This document shows, piece after piece, positions 4,630 to 53,659 of a DNA stretch of 64,000 nt. The DNA comes from Escherichia coli. Its GTDB lineage: Bacteria; Pseudomonadota; Gammaproteobacteria; Enterobacterales; Enterobacteriaceae. How positions within the stretch are numbered: the first letter of the stretch is position 1; each line of letters starts with the position of its first letter. Below the pieces are notes generated by a model. That model was not told the DNA's origin. It made no database searches and was given only the letters and a program-made list of their open reading frames with translations. Location of the stretch: the NCBI RefSeq assembly GCF_044324875.1, contig NZ_CP172185.1. One strand, written 5' to 3'. The translations under genes and the position numbers were made by a program.

Positions 4630-5151
4630 TTACTTAATTACACCACAGGCATAGCGTTCACCGCCACCGCCCAGCGGTTTAGGTTGATCGGACATATTAT
4701 CGCCGCCAACGTGGACCATCAGTGCTTTGTCTTTGACTTCATCCAGTGATTTCAGACGAGGTGCGATGACGGCATCGGTAGCTTTGCCGTCATTATTGAC
4801 GACCAGTGCAGGCAGATCGCCTAAATGCCCGGCACCTTCTGGCCCTTCATGTTTACCGGTATTTTGTGGATCAAGATGCCCGCCTGCGGATTCCGCGGCG
4901 CTGGCTTTGCCATCTTTGGTGGCTGGCTGGCAGCTTCCTTTGGCATGAATATGGAAGCCATGTTCACCGGGGGGTAATGCTTTCAGATCGGGCGAAAACT
5001 CCAGACCTTTATCGGTTTCAGTAATGGTGACGCTACCAATTGACTGCCCAACCCCTTGCGACGTGACGAGGTTCATCTCGACTTTTTCACTGGCAGCTTG
5101 TGCGCCGGTCGCAACAACCAGCGCCAGAATGGCCAGACTAAAACGTTTCAT
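4630..5151 (-). CDS. sodC: periplasmic Cu/Zn superoxide dismutase
   Basis: Start at internal MKRFSLAILALVVATGAQA signal peptide; His-rich Cu/Zn SOD motifs (GFHIHAKGSC, GGGGERYACGVI). Confidence 0.92.
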   Translation of the reverse strand: MKRFSLAILALVVATGAQAASEKVEMNLVTSQGVGQSIGSVTITETDKGLEFSPDLKALPPGEHGFHIHAKGSCQPATKDGKASAAESAGGHLDPQNTGKHEGPEGAGHLGDLPALVVNNDGKATDAVIAPRLKSLDEVKDKALMVHVGGDNMSDQPKPLGGGGERYACGVIK

Positions 5152-5231
5152 AGGACCTCCGTTCATTGTGCATTCCTGAATAAGTGTAAACCAGTGACAC
5201 ATTTTTGAACGGCGGCTATTCCTAAAAGTGC

Positions 5232-6128
5232 TTACGGTACGTCGTAACCCAGTGCCGCTTTACGGATACGGAACCATTGTTGACGGGTCATTTTCAGTGT
5301 TTCTGCTTCGACAGCTGCCCGTACGCGCTCAATTTTACCTGAGCCGATAATTGGCAGCGGCTGCGACGGTAAACGTAATACCCAGGCGTAAACCACCTGT
5401 TCAATCGAGCCCGCGTTTAACTCCTCCGCCACCACAGCCAGTTCATCACGCAGCGGCTGGAAATAATCATCATTAAACAGACGACCACCACCAAGGCAGG
5501 ACCACGCCATCGGACGAACACGCAGTTGTTGCAGTTGGTCGAGCGTGCCATCCAGCAGTAACGGCTGATGCACCGGGGATATTTCCACCTGATTAGTGGC
5601 AAGGGTAAACGGCAGACGTGATTGCAACAGGGCAAATTGCGCAGGCGTAAAGTTCGATACGCCAAAATGGCGCACTTTGCCGCTCTGATGCAGATGTTTA
5701 AACGCGTCCGCCACTTCATCGGCATCCATTAACGGGTCTGGTCGGTGGATTAACAGCAGATCCAGATGATCGGTCGCGAGATTAATTAGCGACTGTTCGG
5801 CGCTCTTAATGATGTGATCGCGGTCAGTGATGTAATGACCAATGACGTTTTCTTCACGCGCGGTCGTCGCGATACCGCATTTACTGACGATTTCCATCCG
5901 TTCACGCAGATGAGGTGCAAGTTTCAGCGCCTCGCCAAACGCCGCTTCGCACTGATAGCCACCATAAATATCAGCATGGTCCACGGTGGTCACGCCGAGA
6001 TCCAGATGCTCTTCAATAAAACTGACCAGCTGGCGGGCGGACATATTCCAGTCCATCAATCGCCAGTAGCCCATCACAAAACGGGAAAACTCCGGGCCTT
6101 GCGGCGCAATAGTAATACGCTGAACCAT
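5232..6128 (-). CDS. ydhF: aldo/keto reductase family oxidoreductase
   Basis: 298-aa ORF; recognised sequence and synteny. Confidence 0.85.
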   Translation of the reverse strand: MVQRITIAPQGPEFSRFVMGYWRLMDWNMSARQLVSFIEEHLDLGVTTVDHADIYGGYQCEAAFGEALKLAPHLRERMEIVSKCGIATTAREENVIGHYITDRDHIIKSAEQSLINLATDHLDLLLIHRPDPLMDADEVADAFKHLHQSGKVRHFGVSNFTPAQFALLQSRLPFTLATNQVEISPVHQPLLLDGTLDQLQQLRVRPMAWSCLGGGRLFNDDYFQPLRDELAVVAEELNAGSIEQVVYAWVLRLPSQPLPIIGSGKIERVRAAVEAETLKMTRQQWFRIRKAALGYDVP

Positions 6129-12500: not shown

Positions 12501-13284
12501 ATCTTCTTGCAGTAAAACGAATCTTCCCGACCATGATTAGCGGGCAGGAGCGTCTTGCCTGTATGGATGATGCCGCCAGGCTGCGCGATGCTCTCGGCGT
12601 ACGACTACCAGAGTCACTGCCAGAGATTTATTTGCACCGAGTCAGTTACCCGCTTCGCGACCTCTTTCTGCGCTATCTCCGGGCTCATGCTCTGGTCACG
12701 TCTGAACAACTGGCTCATGAGTTTAGTCTCGGTACTGCCATTGTCGAAGAGCAACTTCAGCAACTGCGCGAACAGGGGCTGGTGATGAATCTGCAACAAG
12801 ACATCTGGGTGAGCGATGAAGTATTTCGTCGTCTGCGTTTGCGCTCGCTGCAAGCCGCCAGAGAAGCGACACGTCCCGTTGCGGCCACGACCTATGCGCG
12901 ATTGCTGCTGGAACGTCAGGGCGTATTACCCGCCACCGATGGTAGCCCGGCACTCTTTGCCTCAACATCGCCAGGCGTTTATGAGGGCGTGGATGGCGTG
13001 ATGCGGGTGATCGAACAGCTTGCTGGCGTTGGTTTACCCGCCTCACTCTGGGAAAGCCAGATCCTGCCTGCCCGCGTACGCGACTATTCGCCAGAAATGC
13101 TCGATGAATTACTGGCAACCGGTGCGGTTATCTGGTCGGGGCAAAAAAAGCTGGGTGAAGATGACGGTCTGGTGGCACTGCATCTACAGGAATATGCCGC
13201 AGAATCGTTCACTCCCGCCGAAGCAGATCAGGCGAATCGTTCGGCGCTGCAGCAAGCGATAATCGCTGTTCTGGCTGACGGAGG
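9584..13284 (+). pseudogene. lhr: lhr (large ATP-dependent helicase) 5' portion: in-frame TAA at 11030-11032, then truncated by prophage insertion
   Basis: ORFs 9584..11032 and 11099..13297 are in the same frame, separated by a single TAA; Walker A GSGKT and DEVH helicase motifs; frame runs into the prophage left end and stops at 13295-13297. Confidence 0.85.
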
Positions 13285-13297
13285 TGATCAGACATGA

Positions 13298-13327
13298 GAT
13301 AAATGAAGGGGGATCCGTGAGATAAAT
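13298..13327. repeat. left-end terminal repeats (GAGATAAAT x2), putative transposase binding sites
   Basis: GATAAAT at 13298-13304 and 13321-13327, mirrored at the right end. Confidence 0.4.
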
Positions 13328-13480
13328 AACGAATTGGAGTGGGTTAACATGGGTTCTGGTGAACAGAACTGAAATTCTTTTCCGCTATACGATAGATAAG
13401 TCGGGCATTGAAATCATCCTTCCTGGCAACTTAGAATCGAGTTTGCTGAAACATGACCCGCAACAAAAAGGATGATTCCA

Positions 13481-13642
13481 ATGACTACTCAAAACAATAA
13501 GCATGATAGCCTGGATTACTCAGAAAAGCCCAAAAGCAAGCACATCGTGACGTTCGAGCGCGATTCCGGTAGAAAAGGAGAATCGTCTTCCTCTGCCAAT
13601 AAAACCACTATGCCGGCAGCCCCTGCCCCAGGGAAAAAATAA
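13481..13642 (+). CDS. hypothetical small hydrophilic protein (53 aa); may be spurious
   Basis: ATG with AAGGA 9 bp upstream; low-complexity Ser/Lys-rich product; convergent with the membrane-protein gene (3-bp gap). Confidence 0.25.
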   Translation: MTTQNNKHDSLDYSEKPKSKHIVTFERDSGRKGESSSSANKTTMPAAPAPGKK

Positions 13643-13645
13643 ACA

Positions 13646-14278
13646 TCATTCATCGTTCGTTGCACGAACGCGCCTGATCTCCACTCTGGCAATCTGATCT
13701 GCTGGAATATAGGTTGCCAGAGCTCCCCAGTACTTATCAACCACGCCTTTATACTCTTCCCATTCGTTACTGCCTGAAGGGCTGCTGTGCGTGACGTAAA
13801 GAACCATATCGCCTTTATTCCCCAGGGTAAACGGACCGTTAGGCCACTCTTCAAAGTTCCCTGGCAGCCGTGACATCATACCGGAACCATCGCGAAGAAT
13901 CACTCTGACCTCGGTAACGCTGAAGCCTGTTTGATCAAACATTGCCTGCCATGCTGAGCTGGTATCGTCAGACCATGAAATATCATTATTCCACAGTAAT
14001 CTGTACATCCATTTGCGACCGTACCTGCGCCACCACGCACCGCATGTAACGGCACACAGAAGTGCTGGTGGTGTTGCCAGCCAGGCATTCAGACCTGCCC
14101 ACATAACAGCCTGGTAAGCCATCATTGCTGTCAGGCCAAAAATCAGCGAAGAAAAAGTCACCTCAATGGGCTTGTGGTGATCCTTCAGTCCCACATTCGC
14201 AATAAAATACCCAATATAGCCACTGGTCAGGGTCACCAGTGTTGCCCATGGCAGATTTAACAACGAAACGTCAAACAT
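13646..14278 (-). CDS. prophage accessory membrane protein (about 3 TM helices plus ~120-aa soluble C-terminal domain), function unknown
   Basis: Start at MFDVSLLNL with GGGAGA SD 7 nt upstream; the longer ORF to 14356 would begin inside the terminator hairpin. Confidence 0.6.
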   Translation of the reverse strand: MFDVSLLNLPWATLVTLTSGYIGYFIANVGLKDHHKPIEVTFSSLIFGLTAMMAYQAVMWAGLNAWLATPPALLCAVTCGAWWRRYGRKWMYRLLWNNDISWSDDTSSAWQAMFDQTGFSVTEVRVILRDGSGMMSRLPGNFEEWPNGPFTLGNKGDMVLYVTHSSPSGSNEWEEYKGVVDKYWGALATYIPADQIARVEIRRVRATNDE

Positions 14279-14315
14279 ATTTTCTCCCTGCATCCTGAAT
14301 ACTAAAGAGAGAGCA

Positions 14316-14351
14316 TAAAAAAAGCACGGTAAGGGGTCTACCGTGCTTTTA
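14316..14351. terminator. bidirectional rho-independent terminator between early operon (mor) and left-end accessory gene
   Basis: A-run, 9-bp stem AGCACGGTA / TACCGTGCT with 7-nt loop, T-run. Confidence 0.55.
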
Positions 14352-14392: not shown

Positions 14393-14791
14393 TTATCTGG
14401 ATTTGTTAACGTCTTTCGTCTCCTCTGGCAGATCTTCATCAAACAACCTGCCCTGCATCCGATCCAGTTCTTCTTTTCTGACCCGCTTAACCACGCTGTA
14501 GACCCACTGAAGCGAAACACCAAACTTGCGGGCCAGTTCGTGGTGGTTGCGTCCGTTAAACTCCCTGAAGATTTCCCGGTCGCGCTGACTGACCTTCCAT
14601 ACCATGCCCATCGGGAAATAAACGTTTTGCCCGCCCCAGACCTGCATCATTCGGTTCGCGACGGCCTGACCAATCTGGTCGGCAATTGCGGGCTCAATAT
14701 CAATAATCTCGCGAACGGTCTCAGAGGTATGCTGTGCCAGCTCCACCAGGAGTTCCGGCCCTTTACTTCGAAACTGATTCAGGTCGCTCAT
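14393..14791 (-). CDS. mor: Mor-family middle/late transcription activator
   Basis: 132-aa ORF with the C-terminal segment FREFNGRNHHELARKFGVSLQWVYSVVKRVRK matching Mu Mor. Confidence 0.8.
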   Translation of the reverse strand: MSDLNQFRSKGPELLVELAQHTSETVREIIDIEPAIADQIGQAVANRMMQVWGGQNVYFPMGMVWKVSQRDREIFREFNGRNHHELARKFGVSLQWVYSVVKRVRKEELDRMQGRLFDEDLPEETKDVNKSR

Positions 14792-15254
14792 GTTTTACTC
14801 CCGCAGCTCTGTGCTGCCACTTCTTCAGTTTCTCAATAACACTGCTTGCCTGTTCAGTATTGAGCCAGCGCAGGGCGCTGATGCCCGTTTCCCGCTTGAT
14901 CCACCGCGCTAATGCATTTTCTGAACGGTCACGAACAATGCCGGCAGCAGCCATTTCAAGCCATAGCGCACGGATTTTCCTGGACTGCGGATGGTTATCC
15001 AGCGGTAAACCGGAGCTGGCTTTTCCGGCAGGCTTAACGCGAAAGCCTTTCCTTTTCATGGATTCCAGCACGCAGTTTAGTTGTGTGGTATCCATTCCTT
15101 TGGTTGAGGCTTTACCGGTCAGCCCCTGTAACATCTGGCGATAGGTGTCTTCATCCATACCCAGTTCATTACGGGCAATATGAATGAGCTGGATAAGACG
15201 TTGTTTAGTCATCATCGTTGCTCCTTTTACCTGCGCCACCGATATAATCGACAT
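14763..15254 (-). CDS. GemA/gp16-like protein (DUF1018)
   Basis: 163-aa ORF immediately upstream of mor as in Mu; family recognised from memory. Confidence 0.6.
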   Translation of the reverse strand: MSIISVAQVKGATMMTKQRLIQLIHIARNELGMDEDTYRQMLQGLTGKASTKGMDTTQLNCVLESMKRKGFRVKPAGKASSGLPLDNHPQSRKIRALWLEMAAAGIVRDRSENALARWIKRETGISALRWLNTEQASSVIEKLKKWQHRAAGVKHERPESVSK

Positions 15255-17413: not shown

Positions 17414-17944
17414 TTACTGCACATCCTGCTCAAAAGGAATTATTGAAAAATCCTCAATGTCGCTTTTAATGGAAATACCGGGAATATTTTTCACGGCCTC
17501 TTTTTCATTCAGGATAGCGTCTTTATTTATTTCCTCTTTTACACGAATAAAGCGCTCAAGCCCCAGACGTCTCAGTAATTCAATAACATTATCCGCCCCA
17601 CGGATACTGACTGATGGCGGACGGTTTCGCCACTGCACCTCGCCGGTGGTAAGGTTAGCGAACTTCACCTTCCCGTTGCCGGTCAGTTCATCACGGTGCG
17701 CCTCACACCATGTCTGGATACCGGACTGCAGTTCGGCCATGCGTTTTTTCAGGCTCTCGGTGAGCGGGGCATAACGTGCGGTGATATCGCCAATGGCGTC
17801 ATTCATTTCTGTTTCAGCCCTGACCAGTTCACGTTGTGCGTCACCGAGTAGTCTGATTCCCTCAATGACCTCTTCGCGTGTCCCTGGTACCCAGAGTGCC
17901 GCTGCGGCCTTGATACGTTTTGCCCCTTTTGTACTTTTTGCCAT
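17414..17944 (-). CDS. gam: Gam-like host-nuclease inhibitor (Mu Gam family)
   Basis: 176-aa ORF aligns along its length with recalled Mu Gam (TEMNDAI, WCEA.RDELT, RPPSVSIRG, GLERFIR, EDFSIIPFEQ). Confidence 0.85.
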   Translation of the reverse strand: MAKSTKGAKRIKAAAALWVPGTREEVIEGIRLLGDAQRELVRAETEMNDAIGDITARYAPLTESLKKRMAELQSGIQTWCEAHRDELTGNGKVKFANLTTGEVQWRNRPPSVSIRGADNVIELLRRLGLERFIRVKEEINKDAILNEKEAVKNIPGISIKSDIEDFSIIPFEQDVQ

Positions 17945-18243: not shown

Positions 18244-19410
18244 TTAAACTCCTTTGACAACGTCAGCGTTGACCTGTGGAACCCCGATTTCAGCGGCCAG
18301 ATTCATGGCGGCTATTACCAGGTTACTGACGGCCAGCGGATACAGCAGGCTGACCATATTTTTACGATGACTTCCCGGATTGCTCAGGCGGGCACGTATG
18401 GCATCCACTGCGCTGGCGTCCATAATGTCCGTCAGTTGTTTACCGGCCCGTTGCAGTTTGAACGTCAGAAATTCTTCAAGGTTATTGTCCAGAGGCAGAA
18501 GTTCGACCACCTCACAGCGCTGAACGACTTCACGGACTTCCATATTGCGTTCAGACAGTTTTGTCGCCAGTTCCGGCTGGCCAATCAGCACGATGGACAG
18601 CAGTTTTTTGAAACCGGACTCCAGCTCAAAAAAGCGTTTGAGGTGTTTCAGTGTCGGAATGGGCAGACTGTGGGCCTCCTCAATCACCAGAACGTGGCTG
18701 AACCCCGCCTGGCTGCTGTCTTTCAGGACGCGATGCAACTGGCGAAAGCGGGCGTCCTGACTGCGTCTGATGCTTTCCAGTGGTGCGATGGTACTGATAA
18801 TGGCTTCGGCAATAGCTGCTGCCTTCAGGGTTTTCCCTTTCACATCGTTGTCTTCCATAGCGATGATGTATGGCTCGATAACAATTACCGGCGCATTCTC
18901 GCGGTTAATACGTTCAGTCAGGTCGCGGCGCAGCGTGGATTTACCCGCACCGGACTCACCGATGACGGCCATAAACCCACCATGACGGGCTGTCTGGTAC
19001 AGCGCCTCACGCACGTAGCGAATGTCCGGGGTGGTGAACACATCATCAGAACCCTGCATGGCTTCATCGGCGAACGGGTCACGGAAAAGACCAAACGCTT
19101 TTTTGGTTGCTGGAAATAACACCTGTTTTTTGAGTAACATATTCTCTTCCTCACTGAGGCTCGTTTTATCTGTGGTACCCGCTGTACGGGGCGTGGCCGC
19201 GCCCTGTACAGCATCAAAACTCTTCGTTGTATCAATCCCCTGACTTTCCAGCCAGGACGCAAGACGCCGGCGCACTTCTCCGGGGCTGGTGCGGGGCCAC
19301 GCGTTATGATTCACAATCTGGGCCAGCGTGGCCTCAGAAACATCGACAGCTCTCGCCGCCACCGCCTGTGGAATACGGGCCTCTTTCAGTTGCTGCTTCA
19401 GTACCAGCAT
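18244..19410 (-). CDS. MuB-like transposition ATPase (AAA+)
   Basis: Walker A GESGAGKST; ATG at 19408-19410 preceded by GAGGAGGG SD; directly downstream of transposase. Confidence 0.75.
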   Translation of the reverse strand: MLVLKQQLKEARIPQAVAARAVDVSEATLAQIVNHNAWPRTSPGEVRRRLASWLESQGIDTTKSFDAVQGAATPRTAGTTDKTSLSEEENMLLKKQVLFPATKKAFGLFRDPFADEAMQGSDDVFTTPDIRYVREALYQTARHGGFMAVIGESGAGKSTLRRDLTERINRENAPVIVIEPYIIAMEDNDVKGKTLKAAAIAEAIISTIAPLESIRRSQDARFRQLHRVLKDSSQAGFSHVLVIEEAHSLPIPTLKHLKRFFELESGFKKLLSIVLIGQPELATKLSERNMEVREVVQRCEVVELLPLDNNLEEFLTFKLQRAGKQLTDIMDASAVDAIRARLSNPGSHRKNMVSLLYPLAVSNLVIAAMNLAAEIGVPQVNADVVKGV

Positions 19411-19420
19411 GTTTCCCTCC

Positions 19421-21190
19421 TCAGTTGCCGTTAACAATGCTGATAACGCTGCTGCGGGCCGGCGTGGTCAGCGTGGCCATGACTTCATCCAGTGCGGCTT
19501 CCGGTACGCCGTCCGGGTACTGTGCTGTTAACTGGCGGTAATGTTCCGGCGTCCAGGTCAGGCCGTCGGCGCTGAACTTATCGCGCAGGGCTTTCGCGGC
19601 CTCCACATGAGTCATGGGACGCTGTTCAGTGCGCGGTCCGCGTACGTCAGAGGCCTGACCACGCTTCGGTATACAGGCCGGAAGTGTGGCGTCATCAATA
19701 TGTTTATACGGGTCAAGCCGCCCGCCGAACGGCAGCGCCTTCGCCTTGCGTGCGGCAGCTGCATCTGCGGCGTTGTCTGTACCGGTGACCAGCGCTTCGG
19801 TTTCTTTTGCCGCCATCTGCGCCGGGGTTTCCGGCAGGGCTTTGTAACTTTCGCCAAATACCGCCGCGCCTTCAGCAAAGCCAAACTCGTTCTTTCTGAC
19901 CTCTTCGACCAGGAAGAACGTCTCGTGGCCGTCCTCACCGGTCAGAACCACCTGTGCCACATCGCTGCGCCACGGGTTACGGGTAATCATCAGTTTTTCA
20001 CCGACCAGTACGCCCGGTACCGTTGATACGTCAAATTCAGTGCCCCGGAACGAGACACGAAGTTTTGGCGTGACTTTGCGGAGTTCTGGTGCCGCCACAG
20101 CCAGTTCACGACATACCTCAACGGAAGGCGCTTTTTTCAGCTGCTCAGCAGTAATCTTCAGCCAGATATCCGTGCGGGTTTTACCGTGGCGGCTGTGAAC
20201 AGCCGTGGCGTTAAAGTGGCTGCGCCATTTCGCGGCCAGCGCGTTGAGTTCTTCCAGACTGTGAACCGGCCGGAACTTCAGACCCGGCTCCAGCTTGCGT
20301 TCGATAATGTCACGCGCCTTTTCCACCTGTCCGGTGGCGCGGGCGTTATGCGGCTTGTGCGCTATCAGGTCGATGCCCAGTGAGCGGCACATGTTTTTCG
20401 TCATACCCGCGGTGTTTGCCGAGCCGGGGTCGAGATAGAGTATTTTTGGCACGCCGTGCAGCACGTCTGCGCCGCCACGCTCCTGCATGGCGTTGATAAG
20501 CACAGAACACAGGTTCTCACCGGATTCCGCACCCGTCACATACTCAACGTAAATCCAGCCGCTGGCATGGTCGGTAATCTCGTAACTCCACACGCGGTCA
20601 CTGGCGATACGGGCAAGGTTAGCGGGCTTGTTTTTGTAGAATTTCGCGCTGTCCATCACCTGCAGCCCTTTATGTCCATTGCTCAGGTAGTAAAGCGTGC
20701 AGAGTGAGGCGTCAATCTGCCAGACATGATTGGGGTGCAGACTGGCCACTTCGGTATGCGGTGCAGGGGCATCCAGTTGTTCCGGGTGCAGGCCATAGTT
20801 ACGCAGGGCACGACTGATGGCATCTTCGGACAACGGGAAAAACTCACCGGTGGTTTCATCTGTTCTGCCTGCGGAGATAAAGCCGTTAGCCCGCAGGGTT
20901 TCCACTGCATCCGCGATGGAATAGAGACGCTTACCGTTCTTGCGGGTGGCCTCACGTAGTGTGGCAGATATCAGCGCGGCTTCGTCGCGGGTCAGGGTGC
21001 TGCGTCCGGCATCGGCGCGTTTTTTGCGTTTATCAGTCACAGAGACCTCCTTCAGCCTGCGCAGCAGAGTGGCGCGGGACATGCCAAGTTCAGCACAGGC
21101 AGCGTCGTATATTGCACCGCGTTTACCATGCCCCGCATTACGTGCCGCGCGGGCTGTTTCAACAAGTTTTTCAGTCAGTGCCGGGGTCAT
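19421..21190 (-). CDS. DDE transposase (Mu A-like function, rve-type catalytic core with N-terminal HTH)
   Basis: 589-aa ORF; HTH RATLLRRLKEV; HVWQIDASLC core; position upstream of MuB-like gene. Confidence 0.8.
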   Translation of the reverse strand: MTPALTEKLVETARAARNAGHGKRGAIYDAACAELGMSRATLLRRLKEVSVTDKRKKRADAGRSTLTRDEAALISATLREATRKNGKRLYSIADAVETLRANGFISAGRTDETTGEFFPLSEDAISRALRNYGLHPEQLDAPAPHTEVASLHPNHVWQIDASLCTLYYLSNGHKGLQVMDSAKFYKNKPANLARIASDRVWSYEITDHASGWIYVEYVTGAESGENLCSVLINAMQERGGADVLHGVPKILYLDPGSANTAGMTKNMCRSLGIDLIAHKPHNARATGQVEKARDIIERKLEPGLKFRPVHSLEELNALAAKWRSHFNATAVHSRHGKTRTDIWLKITAEQLKKAPSVEVCRELAVAAPELRKVTPKLRVSFRGTEFDVSTVPGVLVGEKLMITRNPWRSDVAQVVLTGEDGHETFFLVEEVRKNEFGFAEGAAVFGESYKALPETPAQMAAKETEALVTGTDNAADAAAARKAKALPFGGRLDPYKHIDDATLPACIPKRGQASDVRGPRTEQRPMTHVEAAKALRDKFSADGLTWTPEHYRQLTAQYPDGVPEAALDEVMATLTTPARSSVISIVNGN

Positions 21191-23557: not shown

Positions 23558-24322
23558 TTAGAAATTGCAGATCACCAGCTCACGGCGTGGAGTTGATTTG
23601 CCTGCCAGACTGTAGTTGATGTTCACTGTCTGTATGTTCAGTCCAGTGAACACCTCGCGCATCTGCGGGATGTCGTTCACCGAAATTATCATCTTTCCTC
23701 TGATGCACCGGGCCAGCTCTGCCAGCCGCGAGTAGTTCCCTTCAGGAAAATCCACACCATAGCCTTCTGTACCCAGATACGGCGGGTCACAGTAGAACAG
23801 CGTGTGCGGACGGTCATAGCGCTCAATGCACTGTTGCCAGTCCATGTGTTCTATCACCGTTCTGGAAAGCCGCAGGTGTGCCGCTGACAGTTCTTCCTCG
23901 ATACGCAGCAGGTTGAAGCGTGGCGGGGATGTGGTGGAGGTGCCGAAGCTGTGCTCTGCCACCTTGCCGCCAAACGCCTGCTTCTGGAGGTAGTAGAACC
24001 GTGCTGCACGCTGGATATCCGTCAGTGTTTCTGTCGGGGTGATCTGCAGCCATTTGTAGATCTGCCGGCTGACCAGCGCCCATTTGAACTGGCGGACAAA
24101 TTCTTCCAGATGATGTTTTACCACCCGATACAGATTTACCAGTTCACCATTGATATCGTTAATGACTTCGAGCTTACCAGGTGTCTTAAGAAAATAGAGC
24201 GCTGCTGCGCCGCAGAACGGCTCCACGTAACATTCATGCGCCGGAAACAGCGGCAGGATGTGTTTTGCCAGGCGACGTTTGCCACCAATCCATGGAACGA
24301 TGGGTAATGTCTGCATTTTCAT
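23558..24322 (-). CDS. Dam-type N6-adenine DNA methyltransferase (D12 class)
   Basis: 254-aa ORF with DPPY catalytic motif and N-terminal FCGAAALYF SAM-binding motif. Confidence 0.8.
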   Translation of the reverse strand: MKMQTLPIVPWIGGKRRLAKHILPLFPAHECYVEPFCGAAALYFLKTPGKLEVINDINGELVNLYRVVKHHLEEFVRQFKWALVSRQIYKWLQITPTETLTDIQRAARFYYLQKQAFGGKVAEHSFGTSTTSPPRFNLLRIEEELSAAHLRLSRTVIEHMDWQQCIERYDRPHTLFYCDPPYLGTEGYGVDFPEGNYSRLAELARCIRGKMIISVNDIPQMREVFTGLNIQTVNINYSLAGKSTPRRELVICNF

Positions 24323-25656: not shown

Positions 25657-25725
25657 TCTGTATCTCCTTTGTGAGTGATCCAGCGTGTATTCTGCATACC
25701 CCGAACACGCCTCTCTCTTAACGCG

Positions 25726-25736
25726 CTTTAAAATCC
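25726..25736 (+). promoter_or_regulatory. late-promoter-like motif GCTTTAAAATC about 60 bp upstream of first late gene
   Basis: One of four related motifs at matching distances from late-operon starts. Confidence 0.35.
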
Positions 25737-25787
25737 TCCGCGCCACGCTTTTGCCATGCTGTCTCCACACAACAAGGAGACATTTTC

Positions 25788-35769: not shown

Positions 35770-35781
35770 ATTAAAATCGCC
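35770..35781 (+). promoter_or_regulatory. late-promoter-like motif GATTAAAATCGCC upstream of protease/scaffold gene
   Basis: Second instance of the shared motif, about 60 bp upstream of ATG 35834 in a 214-bp noncoding gap. Confidence 0.35.
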
Positions 35782-35833
35782 GGGCCCGCATTTCTCACAA
35801 ACTGTCTCCGACAACATAACGCGGGACAGCAAA

Positions 35834-41677: not shown

Positions 41678-41690
41678 CCTTTAATATCCG
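41678..41690 (+). promoter_or_regulatory. late-promoter-like motif CCTTTAATATCCG upstream of tail chaperone/tape-measure genes
   Basis: 11-mer CCTTTAATATC identical to the motif at 48029; preceded by GC hairpin plus T-tract at 41651-41672. Confidence 0.4.
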
Positions 41691-41740
41691 TCACGCGCTT
41701 CTCCCGACATACTGCCCTGAACTTACACAGGAGCACAATC

Positions 41741-51804: not shown

Positions 51805-52419
51805 TCAGCCGGCAAGCGCCAGTGGCGCTTCCGGCCAGCTGATTTCAGGTGCCTTGCTGATATCCAGTGCGTTCAGCTCGTCGATATAATCCAGCACGGC
51901 GTTCAGTTTTGCCGTTTCTTCTGGTTTCAGACTGCGACCTGCCCGCAGTTTGAGGTTGATGAGGTCGATGGACTTCATCGCCTGATCCACCCGTTCCTGG
52001 CGTTGCAGTCTGGCAACCTCCAGCTCTGCGGCTCGCTGCCGTTCAGTATCGGTTACCCACGCCTCACCGTTCCAGGTATCCCATGGCGTGGCCGGCTGTT
52101 TTGTGGTGGTGTCCGCCGGGTAATCACCCGGCTGGGTAATCTGAACGGGAGTACCGTTCTCCGTGCTGTATACCGTCTCGCCGCGGTGATCAGGCACATG
52201 TTCCCACCCGTTCAGCGTGGCAGTCCGGCAAACCACGTAACCCGAAATTGCCTCCGGCGGTGCATCGGCGCACGAATGTGCCGGAGTACCCACCCCAAGG
52301 GCGAGATACTCCACAGAGGATGAGGTGTATTCCCGGGTTTCCTCGTCATAGTGATATACAGTGATATCGCCCGCTACAGTGGCGATACCGTTTTCATCCA
52401 GAACTGCAGTGTTACTCAT
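51805..52419 (-). CDS. tail fibre assembly protein (Tfa/U-like), cognate to the alternative fibre tip
   Basis: 204-aa ORF of Tfa type downstream of the alternative fibre C-terminus on the minus strand. Confidence 0.7.
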   Translation of the reverse strand: MSNTAVLDENGIATVAGDITVYHYDEETREYTSSSVEYLALGVGTPAHSCADAPPEAISGYVVCRTATLNGWEHVPDHRGETVYSTENGTPVQITQPGDYPADTTTKQPATPWDTWNGEAWVTDTERQRAAELEVARLQRQERVDQAMKSIDLINLKLRAGRSLKPEETAKLNAVLDYIDELNALDISKAPEISWPEAPLALAG

Positions 52420-52901
52420 TAAACTGCCCTCACAATGTAATTAAGTGCAATGCTACGGGGTCTGACAGTGATACCCTTCGCATACCCGCTTCTGATAGAG
52501 GTCAGAATAGTAGCCTGCATACCATTGTCTGACATTGCCACGACAGGATCGCTGAATGTTGTCCCGTCCGGCATTTTAAAGCTGCCCTCACGAAGGTCTG
52601 TAATGGAATCTTCATTGTTGAATCCCATGCCGACTATCCCCGAGGTTCCCGTAGTGTCCTGGTTATAATAATCCAGCATTGCTGTTCTTAACAGCGTTGC
52701 CCCTTGTGCGGACAGCAACTTACGTCCTGTATCAACTTTGCGCCCGTCGTCCCATCCACGGATAAACTCACCGCGCAAATCGGGAAGACGGAGGGTCGGG
52801 TAGGCTCTGGCCAGAACAGGATATTGTTCTTTTGTAAAGGCGCGCCCGTCGCACTTTAACCAGCCTGCTGGCGGTGTGGCGGTGGGCCACGGAACAGGCA
52901 C
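52419..52901 (-). CDS. alternative tail fibre C-terminal cassette (promoterless in current orientation)
   Basis: Begins PVPWPTATPPAGWL..., paralogous to the plus-strand fibre tip, ends NYIVRAV; lies inside the invertible segment. Confidence 0.7.
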   Translation of the reverse strand: MPVPWPTATPPAGWLKCDGRAFTKEQYPVLARAYPTLRLPDLRGEFIRGWDDGRKVDTGRKLLSAQGATLLRTAMLDYYNQDTTGTSGIVGMGFNNEDSITDLREGSFKMPDGTTFSDPVVAMSDNGMQATILTSIRSGYAKGITVRPRSIALNYIVRAV

Positions 52902-53002
52902 ACCAACGGGTAGCGCCGAGCCTTCTCCTAAACCAACGTTTATCTCTCAAATCCTCCTCACATTATCTCAGTACTTTAACCACTCAAAAGGGAGTATTTT
53001 TA

Positions 53003-53575
53003 ATGCTGATTGGCTACATACGTGTGTCAACAAATGACCAAAACACAGATTTGCAACGCAATGCATTAATGTGCGCAGGATGTGAACAGATTTTTGAGGA
53101 CAAAATGAGCGGAACCAAGTCGGAACGACCAGGCCTGAAACGCGCTTTAAAGTGCCTTAAAAGAGGGGATACATTGGTGGTCTGGAAGCTGGATCGGTTG
53201 GGTAGAAGAATGAAACACCTCATTGCTCTCACAGAAGAGCTACGCGCAAAAGGTGTCAATTTTCGCAGTCTGACGGATTCAATCGATACCAGCACTCCGA
53301 TGGGAAGGTTCTTTTTTCATATGATGGGTGCACTGGCAGAAATGGAGCGTGAACTGATAGTTGAGCGCACGCTGGCAGGACTGGCTGCTGCGCGAGCACA
53401 AGGGAGAGTTGGAGGACGTCGCCCGAAACTGACGAAGGAGCAGCATGAGCAGATCGCAAGATTGCTCCAGAAAGGGTATGACAGAAAGCGGCTGGCAATT
53501 ATCTATGATATTGGACTGTCAACGATCTACCGCTATCACCCTGTTGGGACTGTCATAACGGAACCTGAAATGTAA
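53003..53575 (+). CDS. gin: Gin/Hin/Cin-family serine DNA invertase
   Basis: MLIGYIRVSTNDQNTDLQRNAL... closely matches Mu Gin; ATG at 53003 with AAAGGGAG SD. Confidence 0.9.
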   Translation: MLIGYIRVSTNDQNTDLQRNALMCAGCEQIFEDKMSGTKSERPGLKRALKCLKRGDTLVVWKLDRLGRRMKHLIALTEELRAKGVNFRSLTDSIDTSTPMGRFFFHMMGALAEMERELIVERTLAGLAAARAQGRVGGRRPKLTKEQHEQIARLLQKGYDRKRLAIIYDIGLSTIYRYHPVGTVITEPEM

Positions 53576-53640: not shown

Positions 53641-53659
53641 GCGCGGCGCATCACGGAGG

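Follow-up and report, generated by a model that had tools for sequence, protein, structure and literature searches.

What is carried between the mor gene of a Mu-like prophage and the end of the phage, and what might it do there? We examined this question in a 64,000-nucleotide stretch of the Escherichia coli chromosome (NCBI RefSeq assembly GCF_044324875.1, contig NZ_CP172185.1; hereafter the window), which holds a 40.4-kb BcepMu-type transposable prophage at positions 13285–53653 (TG...CA), inside lhr. Between the terminator of its early operon and its left end lie two genes that face each other, one for a 210-residue membrane protein and one for a 53-residue hydrophilic protein. Our comparisons firmly support a horizontally mobile accessory cassette of ~0.9 kb (roughly 13405–14315) at this site. 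Judged from its conservation, the small gene is an integral, selected partner of the membrane-protein gene, the unit being a conserved two-gene or multi-gene cassette, for which we tentatively favour a role in phage exclusion.

The membrane-protein gene (minus strand, 13646–14278, ATG at 14278; phrog_12870, at the periphery of Pfam DUF6338) is preceded by a strong Shine–Dalgarno (SD) sequence, GGGAGA (14283–14288), 5–6 nt before the ATG. An AlphaFold2 (AF2) model with a mean predicted local distance difference test score (pLDDT) of 84 places three N-terminal helices at residues 11–27, 37–60 and 65–97. These are moderately hydrophobic, with Kyte–Doolittle 19-residue peaks of 1.2–1.5, under the classical threshold of 1.6, a pattern kept family-wide. 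Lys and Arg residues number zero in the N-terminus, two in loop 1, zero in loop 2 and five after helix 3, a distribution that predicts an N-out/C-in topology. Residues ~115–205 were modelled as a β-barrel (pLDDT ~90), and the C-terminal domain is predicted to be a cytoplasmic Sm/SH3-like small β-barrel. The family comprises 530 clusters (50% identity, E ≤ 1e-3), uniform at ~200–215 residues and free of domain fusions, its longer members showing only low-complexity or miscalled extensions. The residues that 52 remote members have in common are Gly, aromatic and Pro; as none is of catalytic type, the protein most likely binds, oligomerises or forms a pore.

Searches assigned the protein to no characterised group. 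Those against Pfam, NCBIfam, PDB sequences and Rfam returned nothing informative, PHROGs gave only families of unknown function, and no homology to a core phage function emerged from the PHROG and Pfam searches; one remote member matches Phage_holin_9 (E 7.6e-4). Structural matches in the AlphaFold database (AFDB) were uncharacterised family members, one of them labelled an S-2TM-beta effector and three labelled DUF421. The DUF6338 model (PF19865) did not match the window protein even at E ≤ 10; it matched 7/26 and 3/52 relatives at E ≤ 1e-3, and precomputed PF19865 flags are on six homologues, so that the window protein appears to be a peripheral or sister group of DUF6338. Isolated phages gave no match in a nucleotide search and a single one by tblastn, a plasmid-like Synechococcus 'phage' record. 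That record (L008; PP438431.1, 'Synechococcus phage Ssp-JY41') has a family member of 29% identity at its very start; its 20 kb encode RepA, ParA, a YoeB toxin and an integrase, without annotated virion genes, and it looks like a plasmid though deposited as a phage.

The small gene (plus strand, 13481–13642; phrog_15726) has an SD sequence, AAGGA (13468–13472), 8 nt before its ATG, and encodes a hydrophilic protein for which disorder is predicted; the protein contains the motif DYSEKPK and has a tail that is Pro-rich and basic (...PAAPAPGKK). The stop codons of the two genes are 3 bp apart (13643–13645). A convergent small open reading frame (ORF) at the 3′ end of the membrane-protein gene was present in 22 of 25 loci, mostly at a gap of −4 to +7 nt, the count being of the distinct loci that could be fetched; a scan of a genome collection with too strict a pattern gave only 6 loci. 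Loci with such ORFs have one to five of them: two each in L015 and L009, and five in tandem (5056–5830, 37–76 residues) in L067, a 16.6-kb Rhodobacteraceae plasmid (CP081163.1), where they end in PPPPKK, PPPPKR or PPPKPKR and are unannotated in the record. Pro-tailed ORFs occurred at 0.66/kb in the 1.5 kb downstream of the membrane-protein gene, compared with 0.076/kb elsewhere in the same loci, and all the downstream ones were on the convergent strand. The small proteins can be aligned from alpha- to gammaproteobacteria and share an N-terminal M-[ST], a [YF][ST][EY]xP[KRQ] motif and a Pro-rich, usually basic C-terminus, weak in the enteric versions; over the same range the frame, the orientation and a length of ~45–57 residues are kept. 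Divergence is fast, with nonsynonymous differences (pN) of 0.3–0.5 between lineages. In the three closest pairs, pN/pS values of 0.01/0.15, 0.23/0.69 and 0.17/0.64 place pN well below the synonymous pS, which indicates that the small ORF is a selected coding gene, fast-evolving and probably disordered. We also considered the small-protein tail as an SH3 ligand, an idea that is so far unsupported: PxxPx[K/R] is in only ~10 of 24 distinct small proteins, and a fused AF2 model, described below, gave no docking.

These results agree with the initial annotation of this DNA on the anatomy of the two genes. Its 210-residue protein with three N-terminal helices and a soluble C-terminal domain was borne out by AF2, hydropathy and charge, and its 53-residue hydrophilic ORF with a good SD, convergent at a 3-bp gap, by direct reading of the sequence; homology to a core phage function, which would have spoken against it, was not found. 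That annotation treated the small ORF as a side remark. The ORF is indeed there, but its minor status did not hold, as it is an integral partner, conserved in 22 of the 25 loci and under purifying selection.

Independent evidence that analogous small proteins are made is provided by mass spectrometry in Pseudomonas stutzeri, where proteogenomics identified three novel and abundant proline-rich small proteins, with 44–114 spectra each, beside the DUF6338 gene Pstu14405_RS12030 (PMC10433244). Their tails read ...APTAPPPPKK, ...KAPPPPPKRDSK and ...SAPPPPPKKGG; the DUF6338 membrane protein itself was undetected in that study, in which membrane fractions were not analysed (PMC10433244). Its authors judged the small proteins species-limited and possibly de novo genes, and pointed out that DUF6338 is found in biosynthetic clusters as well and that abundant Pro may mean disordered segments or antimicrobial roles (PMC10433244). 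By analogy, this locus suggests that pairing with Pro-tailed small proteins extends to canonical DUF6338. Literature searches by accession, locus tag and PHROG identifier yielded nothing on either window protein, and a search for DUF6338 gave only this one paper (PMC10433244).

Is the cassette part of the phage backbone or cargo? Three phage records with the closest Mor (91–93% identity) had no tblastn match to the 210-residue protein. In Escherichia phage PhiKM only ~155 bp, without the cassette, separate the mor stop codon from the same terminal repeat (...CATTTATCTCA), whereas in Klebsiella phage KP12 an unrelated 110-residue gene fills the corresponding slot. In BcepMu (mor = gp01, 389–721) and in JBD25/Fc02-type Pseudomonas phages, mor is the terminal gene. 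The insert has a GC content of 48.9%, compared with 54.5% for the prophage, and third codon positions (GC3) give 52%, compared with 64% for mor. A slot that is empty or differently filled in phages with a close Mor, together with the lower GC, indicates that the cassette is cargo, that is, a moron in the comparative sense, and the earlier call of a left-end moron is upheld by both the left-end comparison (PhiKM, KP12, BcepMu) and GC. Morons are recognised as extra DNA relative to related phages, with deviant base composition, a promoter and a terminator of their own, and expression from the repressed prophage (PMC3594210); the cassette is extra DNA of deviant composition, and it lacks a terminator of its own. 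The KP12 gene (L051 3410–3739, MARPSNIDKLPEDVRAEL...) resembles, by eye, the N-terminal part of a DUF3486/small-terminase-like protein.

The same pair travels widely. It follows mor in Mu-like prophages of Proteus, Serratia, Citrobacter, Salmonella and symbionts; it also lies between siphovirus tail genes, directly after a tape-measure gene, in the terminase–portal gap of an element like HK97 and gene transfer agents (GTA), beside an S24 (CI-like) repressor, in a Bradyrhizobium chromosome, and near ImmA/IrrE modules in an Allosphingosinicella contig and the 16.6-kb Rhodobacteraceae plasmid. The allele in the window is carried by 117 of 5,426 complete E. coli genomes, including ABU 83972 and one O25b:H4-ST131 isolate. 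Serratia prophage L036 matches ours exactly in the terminator hairpin and the stretch before it, the similarity ends right after the T-run, and the membrane protein is only 63% identical. This breakpoint implies that the terminator belongs to the backbone and that differing insert alleles are exchanged behind it. Two loci of a Mu-like lineage whose 198-residue Mor has a C-terminal extension (L042 5743–6000; L044 5651–5977) have an extra gene between mor and the membrane-protein gene, which in L042 is an 85-residue ORF whose stop codon abuts the membrane-gene ATG (0-nt gap) with no terminator; the extra gene implies that cargo accumulates stepwise in the slot.

How, then, would the two genes be transcribed? 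The early (mor) operon ends in an intrinsic terminator (14317–14350, minus strand) with a stem at 14324–14346, an A/U extension and a U7 tail at 14317–14323. The minus-strand hairpin, AAAAGCACGGUA-GACCCC-UUACCGUGCUUUU followed by U7, has a ΔG of −19.1 kcal/mol (z −7.1), matched by 0 of 200 shuffles, while the stem as read on the plus strand reaches −16.7 (z −4.7) with only UUUUAUAC as a tail. Relatives have four differing stem sequences at the mor-terminator site, each followed by a T-run, and such covarying stems mean that the terminator is conserved as an RNA structure and not as a sequence. No terminator was found after either cassette gene, the first hairpin on the plus strand being that of the mor terminator; with none between the genes, the small-gene transcript is expected to run antisense into the membrane-protein gene, barring earlier termination by Rho.

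Upstream of the small ORF there is a σ70 promoter-like site (plus strand, 13408–13437; TTGAAA, 18 nt, TAGAAT) that agrees with the consensus at 10 of 12 positions, and TTGAAA-N17/18-TAGAAT is conserved in hexamers and spacing across six divergent enteric lineages amid variable flanks. This is good evidence that the small ORF has a constitutive σ70 promoter, predicted to point inward from the phage end. For the membrane-protein gene, the leader (minus strand, 14283–14304), ~40 bp after the terminator, has the SD GGGAGA and a −10-like TAGTAT (14299–14304) with no −35; the hexamer (TAGTAT/TAATAT) is shared by members of the E. coli group but absent from other lineages, and no conserved promoter of the gene's own was found among relatives. 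In all phage contexts the gene points the same way as the operon upstream of it, and from this arrangement read-through or co-transcription from the phage operon seems at least as likely as transcription of its own.

The initial annotation had proposed a strong bidirectional terminator that insulates the membrane-protein gene, with its own transcription, including in the lysogen. The strength of the hairpin stands, its bidirectionality only in part, as the plus strand is weaker and has a poor U tail. Insulation would hold for E. coli, Serratia and Proteus, where a strong terminator precedes the gene, but not for L042/L044 with their 0-nt gap, and the terminator is a piece of the early-operon backbone, not of the insert. 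Own transcription finds support in sequence for the small ORF, through its conserved promoter, but not for the membrane-protein gene, whose −10-like hexamer is not conserved. Elsewhere in the prophage, the lysis, head and tail operons have a −10-like element in common upstream (TTTAAAATCC, TTAAAATCG, TTTAATATCC; 25700–25745, 35770–35790, 41690–41710), and these intergenic regions may be Mor-dependent late promoters. The tail-region copy has a GC hairpin, GGGGCTCCGGCCCC, and a T-rich run 17 nt upstream, a layout as before the 210-residue gene.

For the function of the cassette we favour, with real reservations and by analogy, a membrane effector that is checked by the opposing small gene and acts in phage exclusion or abortive infection. 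In the lysogen the small-gene promoter would dominate, and the small protein, together with the antisense transcript into the membrane-protein gene, would keep the membrane protein low or inactive. Shut-off of host expression by an infecting phage would upset this balance, as would strong transcription of the phage operon that continues into the co-oriented membrane-protein gene; the membrane protein would then accumulate, act at the inner membrane and exclude the phage or abort its infection, in a logic like that of toxin–antitoxin or 'excludon' arrangements. Transmembrane helices joined to a small β-barrel are the layout of known membrane-disrupting defence effectors. It is from this layout, the typical roles of morons (PMC3594210), the toxin–antitoxin-like arrangement and the plasmid and ImmA/IrrE neighbourhoods that we infer exclusion; antagonism between the two genes is proposed in the same spirit, whereas the anatomy, mobility and pair conservation of the cassette, its promoter and the terminator are matters of observation.

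Several results weigh against such an antagonistic exclusion module. The charge of the small protein varies between +4 and about −10, with a strongly acidic version in Proteus, and its tail varies as well, L061 having no Pro tail. When the pair was fused through a linker and modelled by AF2 with a 20-row paired alignment, the small protein remained undocked (pLDDT ~30), a null result that is itself weak given the shallow alignment and the linker. No defence model of PADLOC-DB v2 was matched by either protein or by 10 remote relatives, and Pfam S_2TMBeta matched none of 78 family members. Nor is convergence universal among more distant relatives: the P. stutzeri small genes point the same way as their DUF6338 neighbour (PMC10433244). 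Finally, the co-orientation with phage operons would fit a lytic-cycle role equally well.

A more specific form of the favoured reading, which we regard as doubtful, is a widespread and so far undescribed two-component module of phages and plasmids, in which one to five tandem polyproline-tailed microproteins would engage the cytoplasmic Sm/SH3-like barrel of an oligomeric three-transmembrane-helix protein, the face-to-face genes would form a transcriptional lysogeny/infection switch, and the membrane protein, once released, would make the membrane collapse or keep DNA from entering. Whatever its function, the cassette is of interest on several counts. Prophage morons rank among the main sources of new functions in phage defence and host fitness, and relatives of this one are spread across alpha- and gammaproteobacteria. 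Pairing with Pro-tailed small proteins across unrelated mobile elements was not found described in the searchable literature, and it ties the orphan Pfam family DUF6338 to phage biology. With two genes in ~0.9 kb, the cassette is a concrete and cheap experimental target. If it does act in defence or exclusion, it would contribute a mechanism that relies on convergent transcription and a microprotein; if microproteins do engage the barrel, it would be a new abortive-infection or exclusion family built on a microprotein–SH3-like interaction.

A different explanation we consider rather unlikely: the membrane protein would be a lytic-cycle accessory made by read-through or co-transcription from phage operons, early in Mu-like phages and late in siphoviruses, and the small gene would be only a brake in the lysogen. 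It would serve the phage, for instance in exclusion of a secondary infection during lytic growth, depolarisation of the membrane or timing of lysis. Besides an orientation shared with the upstream operon in every context, the abutting genes of L042/L044 (0-nt gap, no terminator), the failure to find a conserved promoter of its own and the match of one remote member to Phage_holin_9 (E 7.6e-4) are all in line with it. Yet the membrane-protein gene is dispensable, as close isolated phages lack it, and is also found on small plasmids and at chromosomal sites without nearby phage genes; in the prophage studied here it is distant from the lysis genes (holin and SLT, ~25.8–26.9 kb), and it lies behind a strong terminator in E. 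coli, Serratia and Proteus. The tandem arrays of paralogous small ORFs with a common C-terminal motif, five in L067, two each in L015 and L009 and three in P. stutzeri, point elsewhere, to the small proteins as the actual products (bacteriocin-like, RiPP-like, that is, resembling ribosomally synthesised and post-translationally modified peptides, signalling, or ribosome- or chaperone-targeting), with the three-helix protein as exporter, receptor or immunity factor. The occurrence of DUF6338 in biosynthetic clusters and a possibly antimicrobial Pro content (PMC10433244) fit such a scheme. We nonetheless consider it distinctly improbable, as neither a signal peptide or leader on the small proteins nor a modifying enzyme or ABC transporter nearby was found in the contexts examined, the net charge spans +4 to about −10, 210 residues and three transmembrane helices are small for a transporter, and the enteric Pro tails are weak.

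The remaining alternatives concern single parts of the cassette. The hairpin at 14324–14346 might double as the Mor-binding dyad of a middle promoter like Mu Pm, such that the membrane-protein gene would be Mor-activated in the position that gene C has in Mu, an arrangement compatible with several functions. Mu Pm has its Mor dyad centred at −43.5 and is a promoter without a −35 (PMC4287176); here, with TAGTAT taken as the −10, the dyad centre would be ~43 bp upstream of the start so predicted, again with no −35, and the −10 region resembles the candidate late promoters TTTAAAATCC, TTAAAATCG and TTTAATATCC. We rate this as very improbable. The window has no second copy of the dyad, the four unrelated stems in relatives speak more for an RNA structure than for a protein-binding site, conservation of the −10 hexamer stops at the E. 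coli group, and a k-mer comparison with the candidate late promoters gave only CTCTCTCTT and the −10-like similarity, at inconsistent spacing. That the 53-residue ORF is nonfunctional as a protein, its frame open by chance or owing to an antisense-RNA role, is the least credible proposal of all. Predicted disorder, low complexity and a pN of 0.3–0.5 between lineages might be read in this way, but frame, orientation and the length of ~45–57 residues are kept from alpha- to gammaproteobacteria, [YF][ST][EY]xP[KRQ] and a Pro-rich tail are common to homologues, pN is well below pS in close pairs, the SD is strong, and analogous proteins were detected by mass spectrometry (PMC10433244).

The prophage around the cassette is well defined. 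A 6-bp target-site duplication, CGGAGG (13279–13284 and 53654–53659), splits lhr, with both junctions read directly. The left terminus (13285–13404) starts TGATCAGACA and has TGAGATAAAT repeats at 13295–13304 and 13318–13327, presumed to be transposase-binding sites; independent prophages and PhiKM end in the same sequence. The right end, at 53653, reads ...GCGCATCA, and two CATTTATCGC(A/G)C repeats there mirror the left-end TGAGATAAAT repeats. The same prophage is integrated elsewhere in the chromosome in 117 complete E. coli genomes, as in rstB of ABU 83972, and these sites together with the duplication establish it as a real, randomly integrating element with the cassette at its true left end. 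The early genes are on the minus strand: transposase (19421–21190), a B-like ATPase (18244–19437), gam (17414–17944), gemA/gp16 (14763–15254) and, as last backbone gene of the operon, mor (14393–14791; a Mor/C-family activator, phrog_532, Mor family in RefSeq). Lysis, head and tail genes are on the plus strand from ~25.8 kb.

Several further observations concern the ends and other genes of the prophage. The upstream Lhr ORF has an annotated end, ...ADGGDQT*, whose last codons are supplied by phage DNA. Positions 13300–13479 (the terminal 139–180 bp, including the small-ORF promoter) have 89–91% identity to unannotated sites in many E. coli records, among those listed mostly large (170–290 kb) ColV-type plasmids of avian pathogenic E. 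coli (APEC; L065 4001–4138, L066 4001–4180), and the terminal sequence is also the end of a different Mu-like prophage beside ppdD in strain SCU-387. At these matches the small ORF is reduced to two codons followed by other DNA, and they look like remnants of phage ends; 105 plasmid matches, considered as copies of the cassette, were rejected on finding that they were phage-end remnants without it. A DNA adenine methylase gene (minus strand, 23558–24322) lies between the immunity region and the lysis genes. At the right end, a gene for a Gin/Hin-like serine recombinase within 52419–53575, beside a tail-fibre fragment of opposite orientation, suggests a putative invertible host-range segment as in Mu, and the tail-fibre region is unlike that of the ABU 83972 copy.

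How does the cassette compare with systems already described? The mor–terminator–Pm–C region of Mu likewise has a gene directly after mor and the early terminator, with a similar dyad/−10 geometry; in Mu, however, this next gene encodes a Mor/C-family activator and not a membrane protein, and the dyad sequence is not conserved here. Three transmembrane helices with a small cytoplasmic barrel are also found in MscS and in truncated NfeD (YuaF), and Sm-like barrels tend to form rings, such that an Sm-like barrel would suggest, by analogy, an oligomeric channel. Neither MscS nor NfeD was among the top structural matches listed, and an MscS-like mini-channel was rejected, leaving an analogy only, as hhalign against E. 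coli MscS gave a probability of 0.6% and no MS_channel Pfam match was obtained. Cap15, from work by Duncan-Lowey et al. in 2021, is reportedly an S-2TM-beta effector of the cyclic oligonucleotide-based anti-phage signalling system (CBASS), with transmembrane helices and a ligand-binding β-barrel. Like it, the membrane protein has N-terminal transmembrane helices and a small cytoplasmic barrel in ~200 residues, and one AFDB relative is named S-2TM-beta; Cap15 has two helices and an eight-stranded barrel, compared with three helices and an Sm/SH3-like barrel here. Membership of the Cap15/S-2TM-beta group was rejected, with no PADLOC match for 12 family proteins and no S_2TMBeta match among 78 members, and no CD-NTase, nucleotide cyclase or other signal-generating gene adjoins the cassette in any context examined.

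HK97 gp15, P22 SieA and Cor are moron-encoded inner-membrane superinfection-exclusion proteins (PMC3594210). They share with the cassette its nature as extra DNA of deviant GC, sites in early or tail operons of temperate phages, a small inner-membrane product and homologues outside prophages, but have no kinship to it in sequence or fold; the cassette, moreover, is a pair with one or more convergent small genes and a predicted cytoplasmic barrel, and its role in exclusion is putative. The P. stutzeri DUF6338 locus is close in content, with a ~200-residue membrane protein and small hydrophilic neighbours ending in PPPPKK, PPPPPKR or PPPPPKKGG (PMC10433244). Such tails are seen in L047, L002 and L067 and are weaker in the window small protein; the P. 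stutzeri small genes differ in being co-directional, and the window protein is not matched by the DUF6338 model even at E ≤ 10. Type I toxin–antitoxin and excludon systems, such as hok/sok-type phage exclusion and txpA/ratA, are built on convergent overlapping transcription. A type I toxin is a peptide of <60 residues opposed by an RNA-only antitoxin, compared here with 210 residues that include a folded domain, putative as its toxicity is, and a selected coding small gene. In common with these systems, the cassette has facing genes with no terminator between them, a strong promoter, probably constitutive, for the small partner and a membrane protein as the other, and is prophage-borne and mobile.

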